Assembly (NCBI GenBank): GCA_964391095.1
Contig: CAYMJA010000001.1
Coordinates: 1-59,795, forward strand
DNA length: 59,795 nt
From: an uncultured Candidatus Saccharibacteria bacterium
GTDB taxonomy: Bacteria > Patescibacteriota > Minisyncoccia > Minisyncoccales > GWA2-38-27
Direction: 5' to 3'
The notes beneath the pieces were generated by a model that saw only the letters and a list, made by a program, of their open reading frames with translations, did not search any database and was not told the origin of the DNA. Numbering within the stretch: position 1 is the first letter of the stretch; every line of letters begins with the position of its first letter. The position numbers were made by a program, and so were the translations under genes. Of the stretch, positions 457-43,267 are shown one piece after another.

Positions 457-1053
457 ATATTTATTTTCTGATACCATTTTAATCATCTTATCTATTTGTT
501 TTTTAAGTTTAGTATTATTGAATTCCATTATTAACACTCCCGTCATACTTTTCTTCTTGTATGTCCCTTTTCCTCTAGGTTTCAAAGAAGTAATTGAACC
601 TATTTGGCTTTTAGTAAGTTCAAGTGCTCTTGTCCAAAAGTTTATCGCTTTATTTTTATCTGCATCGTTAAATAAAAGTAAACTATATTTCAATTTTTCT
701 TGTTTAATTTCACATATCTTAATTAAAAATTCACGGAATAATCTTATAAGATTTGGGTCAGAATTACCCAACCTTACAGCAGTTTTACTATTTTTATTCC
801 CTTCTCCCCAAAAAATACCCAATCCTAAAGCCTTAAGTTCTACTTCTTTTAAGTTTAATTTCTTTTTAATTTTAAATGGATCGCCGTCAGGATTATATTT
901 AATATAGTTGGCTTCACTACGATTTCTTCTTGGGATATTATATCTATTTATCCAATAAGTTATCTGGTGATAACTCCAACTTGTCCTATCAGAAATTTCT
1001 TGCATTGACAGCCCCTTTTTATATAATTTTTCTAATTTCTTTTTTGGCAACAT
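451..1053 (-). CDS. HTH plus LAGLIDADG-like (homing-endonuclease-like) protein, 200 aa
   Basis: N-terminal HTH-like segment (LSMQEISDRTSWSYHQITYWINRYNI). A LAGLIDADG-like motif (LGLGIFWGEGNK) is followed by V.LGNSD..LI..F..FL, as in single-motif LAGLIDADG folds. The ORF sits exactly between two tRNA genes. Confidence 0.5.
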   Translation of the reverse strand: MLPKKKLEKLYKKGLSMQEISDRTSWSYHQITYWINRYNIPRRNRSEANYIKYNPDGDPFKIKKKLNLKEVELKALGLGIFWGEGNKNSKTAVRLGNSDPNLIRLFREFLIKICEIKQEKLKYSLLLFNDADKNKAINFWTRALELTKSQIGSITSLKPRGKGTYKKKSMTGVLIMEFNNTKLKKQIDKMIKMVSENKYA

Positions 1054-1138
1054 TGGGTGCGGTCGGAGTCGAACCGACGGGGCCTAAATAGACGACTGTT
1101 TTACAGACAGATCCCACCCCCTATGGGACTACGCACCC
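1054..1138 (-). tRNA. tRNA-Tyr (anticodon GTA), long variable arm
   Basis: Acceptor GGGTGCG/CGCACCC, anticodon loop CTGTAAA, long variable arm, T-arm GTCGG-TTCGACT-CCGAC. Confidence 0.85.
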
Positions 1139-1197
1139 TCTAATTGTTTACCTATCTCATACCACAAAAATTATTATTTTTCAATCCTTCGATGAAC

Positions 1198-1872
1198 TCA
1201 GGACGAGATGATTGTTCGGTGTTTTTTCCGCCACTCTTCAATTTTTTTATGGTTGCCGGATAATAAAACTTTTGGAACCTTCCAGTTCGTTCTCATTCTC
1301 GGAGAAAATATTTCCGGCCTTGTGTACTGAGGATATTCAATAAAACCTCTTTGCTTGGTGATTCTCTCTTTTAGAAGTTGGGGTTTCCCTAAAACGCCGG
1401 GAATTAATCTTGCCATTGTTTCCATCACTACCATAGCCGGCAATTCCCCACCCATAAGAACATAGTTCCCTATTGATAATTCAATATCAGCAATATATTT
1501 TGCTACTCTTTCATCCACCCCTTCATATCTGCCGCAAATTAAAATCATTTGATCTAATTTGCTGAATTGATAAGCCATTTTTTGATTGAACTTTCTGCCG
1601 CGAGGAGTAAATAAAATAACTTTAGTTTTTCTTTTTTTCCCTTTTTGAAGATCGCTTACGGCTTTGAAGATTGGCTCTATTTTCATAACCATCCCGAGTC
1701 CCCCGCCGAAAGGGCGATCATCAACGGTTTTATGTTTATCAGAAGTCCAATTTCTTAAACTGTGAATGTTGACTTTTATTAATTTTTTTTTCTGAGCACG
1801 GGCAATTAAGCTCTCAGATAAATAAGAATTAAAAATCTCAGGGAAAATTGTAATGATATCAAATTTTATCAT
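1198..1872 (-). CDS. trmD: tRNA (guanine37-N1)-methyltransferase TrmD
   Basis: MIKFDIITIFPE...DDRPFGGGLGMVMK, typical TrmD SPOUT motifs. Confidence 0.95.
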   Translation of the reverse strand: MIKFDIITIFPEIFNSYLSESLIARAQKKKLIKVNIHSLRNWTSDKHKTVDDRPFGGGLGMVMKIEPIFKAVSDLQKGKKRKTKVILFTPRGRKFNQKMAYQFSKLDQMILICGRYEGVDERVAKYIADIELSIGNYVLMGGELPAMVVMETMARLIPGVLGKPQLLKERITKQRGFIEYPQYTRPEIFSPRMRTNWKVPKVLLSGNHKKIEEWRKKHRTIISS

Positions 1873-1966
1873 GAAACTTAAGTCTGTTGGGCAAATAAAT
1901 GAAAACAGCGCTATTGATGAATAATAGCACTGTTTTCTGTTAACGTAAACGCAGTTTTGAACGCGC

Positions 1967-2299
1967 TTAAATCTTCAAATCTTCTAAACTCTCTTCAGGT
2001 GAAACTTTTTTTCCTTGAGCAGGTTTTCTACCGCCTTCTGGCTCTTCAATCTTCAAGTTCACTCTGGCATGGTTTTTAAGGCCAACAATTCGAACTAAAG
2101 ACCTAATAGCTCTGGCAGTAGAACCTTCTCGACCAATAATTTGTCCCATATCTTCTGGATTTACTTTCAAAGAAAGTAAAACCCCCATCTCGTCAACTGT
2201 TCTGTCAATTTTGACATCTTCAGGATTATCAACTAAGGCCTTAACAATATACTCAAGCAATTCCTTGTCATTAGTTTCTTTTGCCATAAAATCTTGCAA
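1967..2299 (-). CDS. KH-domain RNA-binding protein (YlqC/UPF0109-like)
   Basis: Has the IIGREGSTARAIRSLV GxxG KH motif and lies in the conserved rpsP-KH-trmD context. Confidence 0.85.
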   Translation of the reverse strand: MQDFMAKETNDKELLEYIVKALVDNPEDVKIDRTVDEMGVLLSLKVNPEDMGQIIGREGSTARAIRSLVRIVGLKNHARVNLKIEEPEGGRKPAQGKKVSPEESLEDLKI

Positions 2300-2323
2300 G
2301 TTAATTTTCTTAAATCTTTTTGA

Positions 2324-2441
2324 ACAGTAGCCCGACCTTTTCTCTCGCTCTGATTCTCTATCAATCAGAGAACTGGTTTACCCTGCACCTTTTTCCAGAA
2401 AAGGTGAAGAGTTTATTCAGCGAGTCCAAACAGCTACTATC
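2324..2441 (-). ncRNA. Unclassified structured RNA or long structured leader between rpsP and the KH gene
   Basis: A near-consensus promoter lies immediately upstream. A terminal helix (AGTAGC/GCTACT, CTCGCT/AGCGAG) encloses two 8-bp hairpins (2348-2370 and 2386-2406). Confidence 0.4.
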
Positions 2442-2444
2442 CAT

Positions 2445-2472
2445 ATTATATTCTAATTAAAAAATATGTCAA
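2445..2472 (-). promoter_or_regulatory. Sigma70-like promoter (TTGACA-16-TATAAT)
   Basis: Minus strand reads GGGGTTGACAtattttttaattagaaTATAAT, starting 5 nt after the rpsP stop. Confidence 0.6.
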
Positions 2473-2477
2473 CCCCT

Positions 2478-2942
2478 TTAAGATTCTTCTTTGGTCTTTT
2501 GGGTTTTATCTTCTTTAGGTTCTTGCTTTTCTTTTTTCTTCTCTTCGGAGGATTGTTCTTTCTTTTCTTCTGATTTTTTAATCTCTTTTTCGGGTTCTGA
2601 TTTTAGCCCTTCACCTTTAGCTAAAGGTGAAGGGCTTACCTTTTCTTTGGTCTCTACTTTCTCTTTTTTCTTCTTTTTCTTTTTGTGGACCGGAATTTTT
2701 GCTCCTTCTAAAATCTTTTCTCGAACCAGCAGATTATAAACGCTATCTGATGGTTTAGCTCCTTTCGAGAGCCAATATTCAATCCTCTCTTTTTTCAAAA
2801 CTTTTTTCTTTTTTAAAGGATTCCAAAATCCAACCTCTTCCACAAAACGACCGCCTTTCGGGGGTTTCCTTTTATCTGTGACCACAATTTTAAATAAAGG
2901 TTGATGTTTTTTACCTACTCGAAAAAAACGAATTTTTAACAT
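2478..2942 (-). CDS. rpsP: 30S ribosomal protein S16 with about 70-aa Lys/Glu-rich C-terminal extension
   Basis: MLKIRFFRVGKKHQPLFKIVV is an S16 N-terminus. The tail is K/E-rich and contains a 32-nt perfect palindrome. Confidence 0.95.
   Translation of the reverse strand: MLKIRFFRVGKKHQPLFKIVVTDKRKPPKGGRFVEEVGFWNPLKKKKVLKKERIEYWLSKGAKPSDSVYNLLVREKILEGAKIPVHKKKKKKKEKVETKEKVSPSPLAKGEGLKSEPEKEIKKSEEKKEQSSEEKKKEKQEPKEDKTQKTKEES
2605..2636. repeat. CCCTTCACC-family palindrome (perfect 16+16 nt) inside the rpsP tail
   Basis: AGCCCTTCACCTTTAG|CTAAAGGTGAAGGGCT, encoding SPSPLAKGEGL. Confidence 0.9.
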
Positions 2943-2982
2943 ACATTTTATTAAACTGTTAAAGCAAGGAAATTTGTTTTTA

Positions 2983-3012
2983 GGAGTACCGCAGGCAAAA
3001 TTGCTTGGCTAC
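2983..3012. repeat. Partial copy of the rplF-rpsH GC-rich element
   Basis: GGAGTACCGCAGGCAAAATTGCTTGGCTA matches GGAGTACCGCAGGCAAGTTAGCTTGGTTA at 59076-59104. Confidence 0.75.
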
Positions 3013-3698
3013 CAGCCCTTTACTTTTAATGCCTCTTTTGCTGCTTTTTCTTCTGCTTCTTGTTTTGAAAACTCCTCGCCTTTCGCTACTAAATCTTTAC
3101 CAAGAAAAACACCCACAATAAAGTGTTTGGCATGATCCGGTCCCCATTCTTTTAAAACATTATAAGTAGGAGTAATCCCTGCTCTTTCCTGGGCCTTTTC
3201 TTGAAAATGCGATTTAGCATCTTTAAAAAGACCATTTTTAATAATATAAGGTAATTCTTTGAGCAGATGCTTTTTAATAAAATCTTTACAAGAATTTAGT
3301 CCCTGGTCAAGATACAGGCTTCCAATAAAGGCCTCGAAAGCATCAGCTAAAATATATTGCCGCGCCTTACCTGTTTCTTGTAATTCTCCCTGAGAAAGCA
3401 AAATAAAATTATTAAAACTTAAATTTTGAGCAATTCTTGCCAATATTTTAGAATTTACTAATGCCGCTCGCCAACTGGTCAACACTCCTTCTGATTTTTC
3501 TGGGTAATTCAAAAACAGATACTCTGTAACTACATGTTCTAATACTGCATCTCCTAAAAATTCTAATCTTTCATTATGAGAAAGTTTAAAATCAGGATTT
3601 TCGTTTAAAAAAGAACGATGAACAAAGGCCTGAGTAAGCAGATCTTTATTTTTAAATTTTAAATTCAGCTTTTTCTCAAGCAAAGAAAGATTCTTCAT
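3009..3698 (-). CDS. rnc: Ribonuclease III
   Basis: Has the NERLEFLGDAVL RNase III signature and a C-terminal dsRBD. Confidence 0.95.
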   Translation of the reverse strand: MKNLSLLEKKLNLKFKNKDLLTQAFVHRSFLNENPDFKLSHNERLEFLGDAVLEHVVTEYLFLNYPEKSEGVLTSWRAALVNSKILARIAQNLSFNNFILLSQGELQETGKARQYILADAFEAFIGSLYLDQGLNSCKDFIKKHLLKELPYIIKNGLFKDAKSHFQEKAQERAGITPTYNVLKEWGPDHAKHFIVGVFLGKDLVAKGEEFSKQEAEEKAAKEALKVKGW

Positions 3699-16531: not shown

Positions 16532-17047
16532 CTATTTGCGAGGACGGACAAAGACCCAGAGAACCGCAGGGCCCCAAAGAATGTCAGTAAAGCCATATTG
16601 ACAGTCCAGCCGTAGCCCAATAAAGTCACTGGGGTTCTCCACCTCGAACACGCGCAGGTAACCGTGAGAATCGGCAATCGGCTCCATAGCGACGAGAATG
16701 CTTTCGCCAATGGGCTGGTTCTCGTATTGTAATCGCAATTGAGGACCGACCTCTGCCGGACAGAGTTCGAGTCCCAACGATTGCTTGGCTCGTTTATAAA
16801 TCTTGTAGCTCGTGGCGTTCTGAAGAAAACCAAGCTCGGCGACCGTGACTATGACTAAATCCACTTCGCTCTCTTTGGAAGCCACCGTGAAGGCAGAATC
16901 TTCAAGGATGTCTTTGGCCCGTTTGATGACAAAGAATTTCTTATTCTCATTCAAGGTTTCATAGAGGTCAGCGCCCTTGAGACCAGTGCCAATCTTGATG
17001 GTCTTCCATAACTTAACTCCCCGTCTTAGGTTCGATTCTCGTCCCAT
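16532..17047 (-). CDS. Hypothetical protein, compositionally foreign (about 50% GC)
   Basis: 171-aa ORF with AAGGAG RBS. GC is far above the surrounding sequence. No motif recognised. Confidence 0.7.
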   Translation of the reverse strand: MGRESNLRRGVKLWKTIKIGTGLKGADLYETLNENKKFFVIKRAKDILEDSAFTVASKESEVDLVIVTVAELGFLQNATSYKIYKRAKQSLGLELCPAEVGPQLRLQYENQPIGESILVAMEPIADSHGYLRVFEVENPSDFIGLRLDCQYGFTDILWGPAVLWVFVRPRK

Positions 17048-40990: not shown

Positions 40991-41695
40991 TTAATCTTGA
41001 GATTCTATCTTTGCTCTTAAATTATCCCATTTCATTTCAGTTGCTTCTCCTATATTACAAATTTCTCTAAATTGGCAATATTGACATTGCCAGTTATTTG
41101 GATAATTAGGGATACGCGAAGGGATAATATTGGAATCAACCTGTTTTTTAAGGTTGGCTAATTCTTCTAAAAGAGACCTAGCTTGAGCTTGATTATAATG
41201 AACCATAAATTCTTTTAATTGTTGGTTGTCTTTATTGACATAAAGTAATATCCCTTTTGGAATTTTAAAATAATGCAAATAGAGTTGAATTTGATTAATA
41301 TTTTCTTCTTTAGCTTGACTTAAATATCTAAAACCCGTACTATTTATGCTTTTAATATCGAGGACATACAACTCTTTACCATCACTAATGACTGCGTCGG
41401 CTCTTCCTGAAATCAATTCTTGAGGAGGGATATTTACCTCTGAGGCTATTACATGAATATCCTTAGTGCTGAGAAGAGAATTCATAATGAGTTCATGAAT
41501 ATGATTGCCGTGGTCAAACAATCTTAAAATATTTGCTTCCATTTCTTTTCTGGGAGCATTTTTAAATTTAAAAAATATTGAGCGGGGACATTTTCCAGCA
41601 TCTGAAATATAAAAATGATGCTGCTCTTTATCTTTTTGCCTGTCTAAATAAAATTTATCGATGATTTCTCTCAACATGATTATCTTTTTTTCCAC
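40991..41695 (-). CDS. Cas4-like PD-(D/E)XK nuclease with 4-Cys cluster (orphan)
   Basis: N-terminal Cys (GKCPRS), D...DIK catalytic core, QIQLYLHY, C-terminal CQYCQFREIC. Confidence 0.7.
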   Translation of the reverse strand: MEKKIIMLREIIDKFYLDRQKDKEQHHFYISDAGKCPRSIFFKFKNAPRKEMEANILRLFDHGNHIHELIMNSLLSTKDIHVIASEVNIPPQELISGRADAVISDGKELYVLDIKSINSTGFRYLSQAKEENINQIQLYLHYFKIPKGILLYVNKDNQQLKEFMVHYNQAQARSLLEELANLKKQVDSNIIPSRIPNYPNNWQCQYCQFREICNIGEATEMKWDNLRAKIESQD

Positions 41696-41723
41696 TGGGA
41701 AGCTAATTTCATACCTCTAAAAC

Positions 41724-41752
41724 TTGACAAGAATTTAGTTTGGGTGTATAGT
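41724..41752 (+). promoter_or_regulatory. Sigma70-like promoter (TTGACA-17-TATAGT)
   Basis: Lies upstream of the RBS AAAGGAGGTGG and the ATG at 41778. Confidence 0.6.
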
Positions 41753-41777
41753 GTATAACAGAAAGGAGGTGGGGAAA

Positions 41778-41978
41778 ATGAAGATCTTTGAAAACAAGCT
41801 AGTTACATTTCTCTTGAGTATCGTTGTACTATTACTGGTAGAGGGTATTCTTGTGAATCTATTCCTTCCTCTTCGAGAGATGAGTGAAGGTACAAGGCTC
41901 GGGATTGGTATGATGTTACTGATAATAACGGCTTTTGCTGCGGTTGGAATAACCGCCCTCATCTCAGCCGACTCGTGA
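41778..41978 (+). CDS. Small two-TM membrane protein (66 aa)
   Basis: Strong RBS, two hydrophobic helices, elevated GC. Confidence 0.6.
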   Translation: MKIFENKLVTFLLSIVVLLLVEGILVNLFLPLREMSEGTRLGIGMMLLIITAFAAVGITALISADS

Positions 41979-42057
41979 GAATAACCCTTCTTAAAGGCAC
42001 CGAAAGTCAAATCCTTCAAAAGATAATTGACCATAAGTGCCTTTTTTTTATTTTCTC

Positions 42058-42084
42058 TTTACCTCTTCTGCCATTGGGGAGCAC
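42058..42084. repeat. Direct repeat 1: duplicate of the rpsI 3' end
   Basis: TTTACCTCTTCTGCCATTGGGGAGCAC is identical to 42697-42723. Confidence 0.95.
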
Positions 42085-42100
42085 AACTTTGCTCGCCAAT

Positions 42101-42129
42101 TTGACAAATCTTTTAAGATACGCTATAAT
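42101..42129 (+). promoter_or_regulatory. Consensus sigma70 promoter (TTGACA-17-TATAAT)
   Basis: Lies immediately after direct repeat 1 and upstream of the 148-aa ORF. Confidence 0.65.
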
Positions 42130-42174
42130 CTTTTAGAATAGGATTACCAATTCAACAAGGAAAGGAGAATAGAA

Positions 42175-42621
42175 ATGATTGCGTTCCTGGTTTATCTGGT
42201 GGCGATGGCTGTTGTTCTCGCCTTCTGGGAAATCCAGATCGAAAGCAAGGACGGTTGGGCAGAGAAACTGCCATGCTGGCGAGTGAAGAAAGGATGGATC
42301 GTAAGAATTCTGGGAGGACGACCTTTAACAGGGTATCATTTCTTTATGGTCGTTTTCCTAGTAGCTATAATCCACCTACCAGTATTCTTTGCTTCTTGGA
42401 GCTGGCAACTGGAGAGTCTTCTTATCGGTAGCTTAATAGGGTTACTGGTAATGGAGGATTTTCTCTGGTTTGTCTTTAATCCCCATTGGGGATTAAGAAA
42501 CTTCAAAAGAGGAAAGATTTGGTGGCATCCTACTTGGTGGGGGCCAATACCAGATTTTTACTGGTGGTTCTTGATTGTCGCTGGCTTGCTAATTTATTTC
42601 GGGAAGTCAGCAACGGTATGA
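42175..42621 (+). CDS. Hypothetical Trp-rich 4-TM membrane protein (148 aa)
   Basis: RBS GGAAAGGAG, four hydrophobic segments, elevated GC. No motif recognised. Confidence 0.65.
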   Translation: MIAFLVYLVAMAVVLAFWEIQIESKDGWAEKLPCWRVKKGWIVRILGGRPLTGYHFFMVVFLVAIIHLPVFFASWSWQLESLLIGSLIGLLVMEDFLWFVFNPHWGLRNFKRGKIWWHPTWWGPIPDFYWWFLIVAGLLIYFGKSATV

Positions 42622-42696
42622 ACCTCCTTTCTCTTCTACTCGCTATCTCAAAGAGCTCTGGTTAAAAACTGGGGCTCTCTCTTTATCATTTTCAAG

Positions 42697-42723
42697 TTTA
42701 CCTCTTCTGCCATTGGGGAGCAC
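42697..42723. repeat. Direct repeat 2: authentic rpsI 3' end (stop plus last 8 codons)
   Basis: Identical 27-mer, encoding APQWQKR* on the minus strand. Confidence 0.95.
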
Positions 42724-43267
42724 GGCGAGCGCGCTTTAAGCCAAATTTCTTTCTTTCTCTGACTCTTGGGTCCCTCGTTAAATAACCTGCTTTACGTAAT
42801 CTCTTGCGAAAATCAGGGTTAAACTTTACTAATGTCCGAGCTATCCCGTGTCTTACAGCTTCAGCTTGGGCATAAATTCCTCCTCCTCTTACTTTGACCA
42901 AAACCTTAAACTTATCAAGGGATTTCATCTTCCTGAGAGAATCGGTAGCAACTTGCTGAAGTTCAGGAGTAAAAAAATAATTCTGATAAGGTTTTGCATT
43001 AACTAAAATCTCCTTTTTCCCTTTAGTAAAAATTCTCACCCGAGCCAGCGCTGTTTTTCGTTTGCCAATACTCTCAAGATATCGCGCCGGTTTGATAGCT
43101 TTCTTCTTAACTTCTTTTTTCTCAACCTTCTTCTTGGTAGTTGTTTTCTTTTCTACTTTCTTTATTTTTTCACCCCCCCGCACCTTTTCTGCAGAAATGG
43201 TGCTGGGTTTAGCCTTCTTGGGTTTCTTCCTGGCAGATTTTTTGGTTTTAGTTATTACTTTCTTCAT
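42698..43267 (-). CDS. rpsI: 30S ribosomal protein S9 with about 60-aa Lys-rich N-terminal extension
   Basis: GKRKTALARVRI...GGGIYAQAEAVRHGIARTL...RERKKFGLKRARRAPQWQKR. Confidence 0.95.
   Translation of the reverse strand: MKKVITKTKKSARKKPKKAKPSTISAEKVRGGEKIKKVEKKTTTKKKVEKKEVKKKAIKPARYLESIGKRKTALARVRIFTKGKKEILVNAKPYQNYFFTPELQQVATDSLRKMKSLDKFKVLVKVRGGGIYAQAEAVRHGIARTLVKFNPDFRKRLRKAGYLTRDPRVRERKKFGLKRARRAPQWQKR

Follow-up and report, generated by a model that had tools for sequence, protein, structure and literature searches.

The 3′ end of rpsI, the gene of ribosomal protein S9, is a known integration site. The streptococcal integrative and mobilizable element (IME) IMESag-rpsI as well as related IMEs and integrative and conjugative elements (ICEs) integrate into this gene end by means of a tyrosine integrase (PMC5704250 Table 1; PMC5090054). 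Here we describe an arrangement at the same gene end in a 59,795-nucleotide (nt) stretch (contig CAYMJA010000001.1, called 'the window' in its full length) from an uncultured Candidatus Saccharibacteria bacterium of the Patescibacteria (candidate phyla radiation, CPR). Two small cassettes, A and B, stand in tandem downstream of rpsI and are bounded by copies of its last 27 nt. Comparison with related loci demonstrates insertion, empty sites, tandem order, constant boundaries, horizontal spread and selection on the cargo. The mechanism that we favour as probable is that a recombinase acting in trans integrated these mini-cassettes, which lack an integrase, step by step and site-specifically at the 3′ end of rpsI.

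The cassettes share with IMESag-rpsI the target gene and position, the preserved gene end and the copy of that end bounding the element; an intact rpsI end with a displaced copy was found, as was an empty site, but no own integrase or relaxase. IMESag-rpsI measures ~9 kb and carries its own tyrosine integrase, relaxase, replication and toxin-antitoxin genes, whereas the cassettes are 0.35-0.64 kb long, with one open reading frame (ORF) and no recombination or transfer gene. The streptococcal hosts are Firmicutes, the hosts here Patescibacteria; the likeness is one of site, and no sequence relationship is claimed. Cis-mobilizable elements (CIMEs) and tandem accretion at attachment (att) sites have been described, as in ICESt1-related elements (PMC5704250 section 2.3, its references 12 and 79). 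Like CIMEs, the cassettes are units without integration and transfer genes, flanked by att-like gene-end copies and stacked in tandem, the newest beside the gene end. CIMEs, however, are decayed ICEs or IMEs, whereas cassette A keeps minimal boundaries in at least four host lineages and thus looks like a unit of its own rather than a random deletion remnant. A third comparison is provided by the ssrA genomic islands of Dehalococcoides, which are arranged in tandem and bounded by 20-bp direct repeats of the gene 3′ end (PMC3146451). They also use a single-copy essential gene as docking site, with end repeats and tandem order, and some of them lack an integration module. On the other hand, they are kilobases long, many carry a CcrB-like serine recombinase module, and the target is tmRNA instead of rpsI.

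Two cassettes inserted at the rpsI end

The 27-mer TTTACCTCTTCTGCCATTGGGGAGCAC occurs twice in the 60-kb window, both times on the plus strand (Table 1, copies 1 and 2). No further match with up to three mismatches was found in the window, and 100 shuffles gave 0. The identity between the two copies stops at 27 nt without extension. The right copy is the reverse complement of the rpsI 3′ end and comprises 2 nt of an Arg codon, the last seven codons (APQWQKR), the stop codon and 1 nt; rpsI itself is the final gene of the ribosomal-protein/rpoA operon on the minus strand. A sequence-only reading of this stretch had proposed that a 27-nt duplication of the rpsI end brackets a cassette and marks the boundary of foreign DNA. 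The first part agrees with our search, in which exactly two copies were present and none was expected by chance, and the second with the empty sites and the identical boundaries in distant hosts described below. Starting from the rpsI body, the order of the locus is copy 1, cassette A, copy 2, cassette B, copy 3 and a Cas4-like nuclease gene, both cassettes being oriented convergently with rpsI.

Copy 3 was detected with a degenerate consensus, TTAYCTYTTYNNCCAYTGSGGMGC, built solely from the rpsI ends of the window and of the related loci L004 and L011. In a scan of the window, the consensus gave one additional site, with 1 mismatch, compared to 0 matches in 100 shuffles. Read in the sense of rpsI, this site is GCT TCC CAG TGG AAA AAA AGA TAA (ASQWKKR*); the two letters TC separate it from the Cas4-like ATG. 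It differs from copies 1 and 2 at 6/24 positions. Its ending AGA TAA T is common to relatives with an empty site, whereas copies 1 and 2 have AGG TAA A. It takes the position of the functional rpsI end in the empty sites L097 and L102, the gap to the Cas4-like ATG being 2 nt in the window versus 10 nt there. These features indicate that copy 3 is a displaced ancestral rpsI end. The raw identity of 18/27 is by itself not significant, and a chance match was ruled out by the independent consensus, the position and the reading frame.

The closest relatives of the host were located via the Cas4-like protein. In six of them (L097-L100, L102 and L103), the rpsI stop codon is followed by 10 nt and then by the ATG of the Cas4-like gene, which is the empty site that the sequence-only reading had expected downstream of rpsI in relatives. 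Compared to the window, these hosts are 85-86% identical in the Cas4-like protein, 83-87% in S9 and 90-92% in RpoA; for the closest relatives overall, ribosomal and Cas4-like proteins are 78-92% identical. One empty-site contig and one cassette-bearing contig stem from the same metagenome (3300031864). Cassette B, like cassette A, is absent from the empty sites. The comparison indicates that the ~1 kb from 41706 to 42696 is inserted DNA. The Cas4-like nuclease, on the other hand, is the native downstream neighbour and not cargo, because it directly follows rpsI in the relatives and because the displaced ancestral rpsI end still abuts its ATG. It had been suggested from the sequence alone that this nuclease and the small ORF at 41778-41978 might belong to the acquisition of cassette A. 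Neither suggestion can be maintained: the nuclease gene is present in the empty-site relatives, and the small ORF belongs to a second, older cassette with its own decayed rpsI-end copy.

Five contigs assembled independently of one another, from the Logan runs SRR9700624, SRR9707467 and SRR9700529 and from the Joint Genome Institute (JGI) metagenomes 3300031553 and 3300031864, show the arrangement with 100% identity over both junctions. An exact repeat of 27 nt is near the k-mer sizes of some assemblers, and a misjoin or graph loop at a shared k-mer could in principle create such a structure. The identity of the three Logan and two JGI contigs over both junctions rules out this artefact, diverged versions of the same architecture in other lineages also speak against it, and we regard its probability as negligible.

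Table 1. Features of the rpsI cassette locus, in coordinates of the window
Feature	Coordinates	Strand	Basis
Cas4-like PD-(D/E)XK nuclease, 228 aa from ATG 41677; left flank of the insertion site	40991-41677	-	Pfam PDDEXK_1 and Cas_Cas4
Repeat copy 3, decayed ancestral rpsI end	41680-41703	-	consensus match, position, reading frame
Cassette B, second complete expression unit	41706-42057	+	promoter, ribosome-binding site (RBS), ORF and hairpin between copies 3 and 2
Cassette B promoter, TTGACA-17-TATAGT	41724-41752	+	11-12/12 consensus for both cassettes' promoters
Cassette B RBS, AAGGAGGTG	41763-41771	+	sequence inspection
Cassette B ORF, 66 aa, hydrophobic	41778-41978	+	ORF
Cassette B hairpin, then T run	41993-42044	+	folding
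Repeat copy 2, displaced rpsI end, 27/27 identical to copy 1, without rpsI body upstream	42058-42084	-	exact 27-mer
Cassette A, complete expression unit without recombinase gene	42085-42696	+	promoter, RBS, ORF, terminator
Cassette A promoter, TTGACA-17-TATAAT	42101-42129	+	12/12 consensus score
Cassette A RBS, AAGGAAAGGAG, ends 7 nt before ATG at 42175	42157-42167	+	sequence inspection
Cassette A ORF, 148 aa, Trp-rich (14 Trp), 4-helix membrane protein	42175-42621	+	ORF; AlphaFold model
Cassette A terminator hairpin, 12 pairs	42652-42678; with T-rich tail to 42688	+	folding
Repeat copy 1, functional rpsI 3′ end	42697-42723	-	exact 27-mer
rpsI, ribosomal protein S9, 189 aa, ends ...RRAPQWQKR*; target gene	42698-43267	-	ORF; Pfam PF00380 Ribosomal_S9, E=1.2e-39

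Cassette A in distant hosts

Cassette A was also found directly downstream of rpsI, and convergent with it, in four more host lineages: L004/L096, L093-L095, L104-L106 and the more diverged L011. These hosts are of Parcubacteria type and only distantly related to the window, with identities of 57-70% for S9, 47-66% for L13, 41-48% for MurA and 29-48% for a 482-aa neighbour (core proteins 41-72%, host proteins overall 29-72%). The cassette A protein, in contrast, is 82-88% identical between the window and the other hosts (66% in L011), and the 5′ non-coding region of the cassette is 70-85% identical between hosts. Synonymous divergence (dS) of the cassette A ORF amounts to 0.39-0.69 among the closer copies (window, L004/L096, L093, L104) and to ~1.0-1.2 for L011, whereas rpsI right beside the cassette is saturated, with a proportion of synonymous differences (pS) of 0.73-0.88. 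The sister pair L004/L096 served as a control and was concordant, with a dS of 0.11 for cassette A and 0.16 for rpsI. A single unit of 0.64 kb, with unchanged boundaries, recurs at the rpsI end of distant hosts. Between the window and L004 (179-818), cassette A is 85% identical in nt sequence and the flanks are unrelated: where the 27-mer starts on its left side, the similarity sets in at that very position, a forced global alignment of the left flanks reaches 44.6%, and rpsI DNA is 56% identical. Our data indicate that cassette A is far younger than its hosts and that it has spread horizontally, site-specifically and repeatedly, because the closest relatives lack the cassette and distant ones carry a young copy at the same site.

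The duplicated segment begins at nt 2 of the Arg(-8) codon and ends 0-1 nt after the stop codon. These limits vary by no more than 2 nt, both between the unrelated cassettes A and B and among the window, L004 and L093. Between lineages, the C-terminal coding stretch of rpsI is identical at 17-21/24 nt; the ends are too alike for assigning the halves of hybrid copies and thereby placing the crossover point inside the 27-mer. The far copy of L093 differs from the 27-mer of the window in 5 codons, and all differences are synonymous or stop-to-stop. For most of its history, this copy was therefore a functional end of rpsI. The far copy of L004 is decayed (VSQ*QKR*), and its sister lineage L096 lacks any left copy. 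The sequence-only reading had named the same gene in the same place without the 27-nt duplication as a finding that would speak against it. Such loci do exist, as L011, L104 and L096 have no recognisable left copy; the L004/L096 pair, on the other hand, shows secondary loss of a copy, which explains the missing left copies in all three.

L093 is more complex. Its rpsI ends in an AKR-type copy, and 7 nt further on lies a QKR-type copy that has 18 exact nt in common with the far copy, so that cassette A is bracketed by two copies unlike the present gene end. This suggests that new rpsI ends can arrive with incoming DNA. At 1661-1720 of L093, the tandem rpsI ends are 32 nt apart, the functional APQWAKR* (TAG) being followed by a mini-ORF, ATG TTA CTC CCC CAG TGG CAG AAA CGC TAA (MLLPQWQKR*). 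In L004, the 21 nt left of the displaced end (146-166) are 90% identical to an internal segment of its own rpsI (933-953), including a 16-nt exact match; the similarity may be a coincidence in AT-rich sequence or reflect another fragment of rpsI. A non-coding module of 190-250 nt with a long GC-rich hairpin was seen in L093 (815-1060), L104 (1700-1912) and L011 (6450-6634). One side of it always abuts an rpsI-end copy, the first ~60 nt are common to L093 and L104, and its order relative to cassette A varies by lineage. A search of Rfam with the non-coding modules and motifs from related loci gave no match.

Cassette content and selection on the cargo

A textbook promoter, a strong RBS and an elevated GC content between the repeat copies had been read from the sequence alone, and all three were confirmed for cassette A. 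Its ORF has 45% GC compared to 35.2% for the window, which places it in the top 0.8% among equal-sized windows, and a GC content at third codon positions (GC3) of 0.48 compared to 0.23-0.37 in the neighbouring genes. This composition is foreign. The AlphaFold model of the 148-aa protein consists of four long helices with a predicted local distance difference test (pLDDT) score of 94. In spite of this score, a Foldseek search of the model against the PDB gave no match with an E value below 1, and no match to the protein was found in Pfam, NCBIfam, PADLOC or PHROGs. The protein belongs to a large, uncharacterised family with invariant Glu, His, Asp and Trp positions that occurs in more than 535 species-level genomes, mainly Dehalococcoidia. 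The nearest relatives of the cargo, 55-67% identical, are found there, and together with the GC excess they point to Dehalococcoidia as the ultimate source of the gene; the comparison with the Dehalococcoides ssrA islands therefore touches the cargo as well. No flanking repeats were seen at the Dehalococcoidia loci of the family. Between copies, the ORF of cassette A shows a ratio of nonsynonymous to synonymous divergence (dN/dS) of 0.12-0.22, and these alignments therefore identify the cargo as a functional gene under purifying selection.

Cassette B has a GC content of 38.6% (42.3% in its ORF). For its 66-aa ORF, the sole match among 5.8 billion proteins was the ORF itself.

Family members and a putative foreign gene at other sites

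We scored 88 loci for flanking repeats. A plausible flanking duplication that clearly exceeded the maximum of the null, 13, was present only at the CPR loci L015 (23), L093 (18) and L004 (16); among the loci scored, flanking repeats around the 148-aa family are CPR-specific. At L015 (1-2000; contig CAYJUL010000005.1 of a metagenome-assembled genome labelled Saccharibacteria), small GC-rich units, each made up of promoter, ORF and terminator, form an array located away from rpsI. This array holds a family member, 64-66% identical, between exact 23-nt repeats, ATTTTTTGTTTTCGCCCCGCGCC, at 544 and 1440. The repeat also occurs as a partial third copy at ~86-101, and every copy is located just upstream of a -35 box. 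A ~35-nt motif with the core GTGGRYTGAAAGATGGRA brackets ORFs on two unrelated contigs, at 682-699 and 1255-1272 of L015 and at 1388-1405 and 1952-1969 of L092; it is absent from the window and corresponds to no Rfam family. In L092, a family member with 66% identity lies in a 2.9-kb block of small ORFs (600-3540) that is inserted between rpsP and the KH-domain gene that usually follows it. Here another ribosomal-protein gene neighbourhood acts as an insertion site; no rpsP-end duplication was seen at the block.

In the window itself, a 171-aa ORF on the minus strand (16532-17047), between miaB-like and unknown genes, occupies the GC-richest stretch (50% versus 35%) and probably represents a further single gene of foreign origin. 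Searches of Pfam, PHROGs and PADLOC gave no match to it, and no direct repeat was found flanking it. ARAGORN places a tRNA-Phe at 1054-1138 on the minus strand; its length of 85 nt and its anticodon, AAA, are both unusual for tRNA-Phe.

The Cas4-like nuclease has more than 1800 homologues, many of which are named Nealsonbacteria or Parcubacteria. In the relatives, its gene is presumably co-transcribed with the ribosomal operon. In the window, ~1 kb of convergent cassettes with terminators now separates it from rpsI, and the nuclease gene must therefore use a new promoter; a promoter scan revealed no clear one.

Proposed mechanism and alternative explanations

In the mechanism that we favour, the 27 nt at the end of rpsI, which start with nt 2 of the Arg(-8) codon and include 1 nt after the stop codon, would be a reusable docking site into which small autonomous cassettes (promoter, RBS, one ORF and terminator; 0.35-0.64 kb) were successively integrated. 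Each integration would leave the rpsI 3′ end intact and push the previous end outward. A recombinase encoded elsewhere, by a helper element or the host, would catalyse the crossover between an attP-like copy on the circular cassette and the rpsI end, so that the cassettes would be cis- or trans-mobilisable att-flanked units without recombination genes of their own. The repeat copies would then be the attL/attR footprint that the sequence-only reading had proposed. Assuming such circles, the junction of cassette A would read ...CTCTTTATCATTTTCAAG + TTTACCTCTTCTGCCATTGGGGAGCAC + AACTTTGCTCGCCAATTTGACA. After loss of cassette A, the chromosome would read ...TTTTTTATTTTCTC + 27-mer + GGCGAGCGCGCTTTAAGCC, and a fully empty chromosome would join the rpsI end to TCATGTTGAGAG. 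Cassette A is the recent arrival because copies 1 and 2 are identical, and cassette B the older one because copy 3 differs at a quarter of its positions (6/24). The sequence-only reading had left a choice between a minimal cassette and the remnant of a larger element. The minimal cassette fits better because the same minimal unit recurs in several hosts, which argues against a remnant. No larger relative of the cassettes was found in phage, plasmid and viral collections, and we know of no cognate integrase-bearing element.

Several observations weigh against this mechanism. As the sequence-only reading had stated for the integrase, no integrase, transposase or other recombinase is present in the window (35 ORFs of at least 110 aa flanking the site and 5 locus proteins); none is found among the called genes flanking cassette A in L093, L096 and L104 either. 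No contig with a circular junction or an A-less variant was detected, and all five contigs with the exact S9 carry the cassette; a metagenome scan for the 27-mer, incomplete in that it missed the known contig L009, returned one contig, which is cassette-bearing. A close relative of the cassette in phages or plasmids, which the sequence-only reading had proposed to look for, was not found: tblastn yielded no phage match, the plasmid matches were confined to megaplasmids of Burkholderiaceae with 40% identity, those in IMG/VR were distant (33-44%), and motifs of the cassette DNA are absent from viral contigs. A phage or plasmid origin was rejected on these searches. The symmetry of the 27-mer is weak, inspection revealing a dyad that is 4/6 complementary (CTCTTC-TGCCATT-GGGGAG), and its fold of -5.4 kcal/mol (z = -0.58) is no better than that of shuffles. 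No left copy is recognisable in L011, L104 and L096, the three rpsI-end copies of L093 cannot result from one attP x attB event, and the repeat of L015, unrelated to the 27-mer, resembles a target duplication.

The last point leads to an alternative, insertion by a transposition-like process that duplicates a long target site. An enzyme supplied in trans would make cuts staggered by ~23-27 nt with a strong preference for the rpsI end, a linear cassette would be joined, and gap repair would duplicate the target. Besides L015, with its exact repeat at a non-rpsI site, the fixed limits of the duplicated segment for two unrelated cassettes and the resemblance of the displaced copies to former functional ends speak for this route, and gene integrity would be kept automatically. 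Duplications of such size or larger are made by the insertion sequences (IS) IS1634 and IS1549 and by Cas1-type integrases. However, neither a transposase nor a casposase was found in the window or the loci, and the cassette ends (AACTTTG... / ...TTTTCAAG) are not terminal inverted repeats, so that both hallmarks of a transposon are lacking. Additionally, the copies flanking cassette A in L093 are QKR-type whereas the gene itself has an AKR-type end 7 nt away, and the left copy of L004 has 13 contiguous nt (CAGAAGAGGTAAA) in common with the end of the window, not with that of its own gene. We consider target duplication unlikely.

Rather unlikely as well is a route without a dedicated recombinase, in which DNA uptake would be followed by a Campbell-type RecA crossover of a circle over ~27 nt or by homology-facilitated illegitimate recombination at the rpsI end; the repeats would then merely mark the extent of common homology. 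In E. coli, RecA-dependent recombination has a minimal efficient processing segment close to 27 nt. The C-terminal stretch of rpsI is the best conserved DNA near the junction, the module order is mosaic, with the non-coding module and cassette A swapped in L093 compared to L104 and L011, and the three copies of L093 fit a repeated import of donor rpsI ends. On the other hand, the 27-nt stretch is ~70-80% identical between lineages (the whole rpsI 56%), a divergence far beyond what RecA accepts. Nor would boundaries that agree within 2 nt for A and B be expected from illegitimate joins, and rpsI near the junction shows no donor-like mosaic, its identity being at host level. Finally, the 148-aa gene might not be mobile at all but ancestral downstream of rpsI, with repeats made by local duplication and genes lost from the empty-site relatives. 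The gene does occupy the same place in five lineages, several of them without a recognisable repeat, and precise loss through repeats would restore an empty site. The closest relatives, however, are those without the cassette, its GC3 is foreign, and the exact 27/27 identity implies a recent event. Vertical inheritance was rejected on the contrast between the dS of the cassette and the saturated rpsI, with a concordant control pair, and on non-coding cassette DNA that is 70-85% alignable between hosts with 41% identity in MurA and 47% in L13. We therefore regard an immobile gene as highly improbable.

Stepwise recombinase-driven integration can be extended to a broader and more doubtful proposal, namely that Patescibacteria possess a cassette platform in which the last 27 nt of rpsI are a permanent docking site for recombinase-less minigenes that circulate between hosts as divergent as different families, driven by a host or helper enzyme. 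Such a platform may be a functional analogue of the integron in which the end of a ribosomal-protein gene takes the role of attI and the cassettes are autonomous in their expression. The Cas4-like nuclease is a candidate for the driver enzyme; against it speaks the L096 lineage, in which the cassette is present and no homologue of the nuclease was seen.

Relation to other cassette systems and implications

Three further systems invite comparison. In staphylococci, the staphylococcal cassette chromosome elements SCCmec and pseudo-SCC use the 3′ end of rlmH (orfX), with direct repeats and composite tandem arrays, and pseudo-SCC is moved by CcrAB in trans. A conserved protein gene 3′ end, repeats with the site sequence, tandem arrays and recombinase-less units are common to both; the target gene differs, SCC elements span kilobases to tens of kilobases, and no ccr-like gene was seen at the rpsI cassettes. 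With integrons, the cassettes share single-ORF mobile units in an ordered array at one docking site, the newest closest. In an integron, however, IntI with attI and the promoter Pc stands beside the array, whereas the neighbours here are rpsI and the Cas4-like nuclease, with no integrase in the window. Integron cassettes carry attC with its 7-bp core at their 3′ ends and are mostly promoterless, whereas a 27-nt coding-end copy without significant fold is found here, and the cassettes have consensus promoters and terminators of their own and face away from the docking gene. Neither IntI, attI and Pc nor attC nor promoterless ORFs were thus found at rpsI. Xer-dependent modules (integrative mobile elements exploiting Xer, IMEX, and the pdif modules of Acinetobacter plasmids) comprise 1-2 genes in ~0.5-2 kb between ~28-bp sites and depend on a host enzyme. 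The likeness lies in small recombinase-less modules between sites of about 28 bp. By inspection, however, the 27-mer with its weak dyad seems to lack the layout of XerC arm, 6-8-bp spacer and XerD arm, and it lies inside the coding region of a ribosomal operon, not at the terminus or a dif site. Judged by their organization, the cassettes appear to work like known att-flanked gene-end elements, yet to differ from IMEs, integron cassettes and CIMEs.

Gene flow in CPR bacteria is poorly understood; their genomes are tiny, few mobile elements are recognisable in them, and genetic tools do not exist. The locus described here offers a concrete route by which single ready-to-express genes enter deeply divergent CPR hosts and spread between them, at a precisely defined and conserved docking site within an essential operon. 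The 148-aa Trp-rich membrane protein was repeatedly acquired by CPR cells and kept under selection. If the enzyme is identified, the 27-nt site and the 0.6-kb cassette would offer a natural template for delivering genes to a specific site in CPR bacteria.

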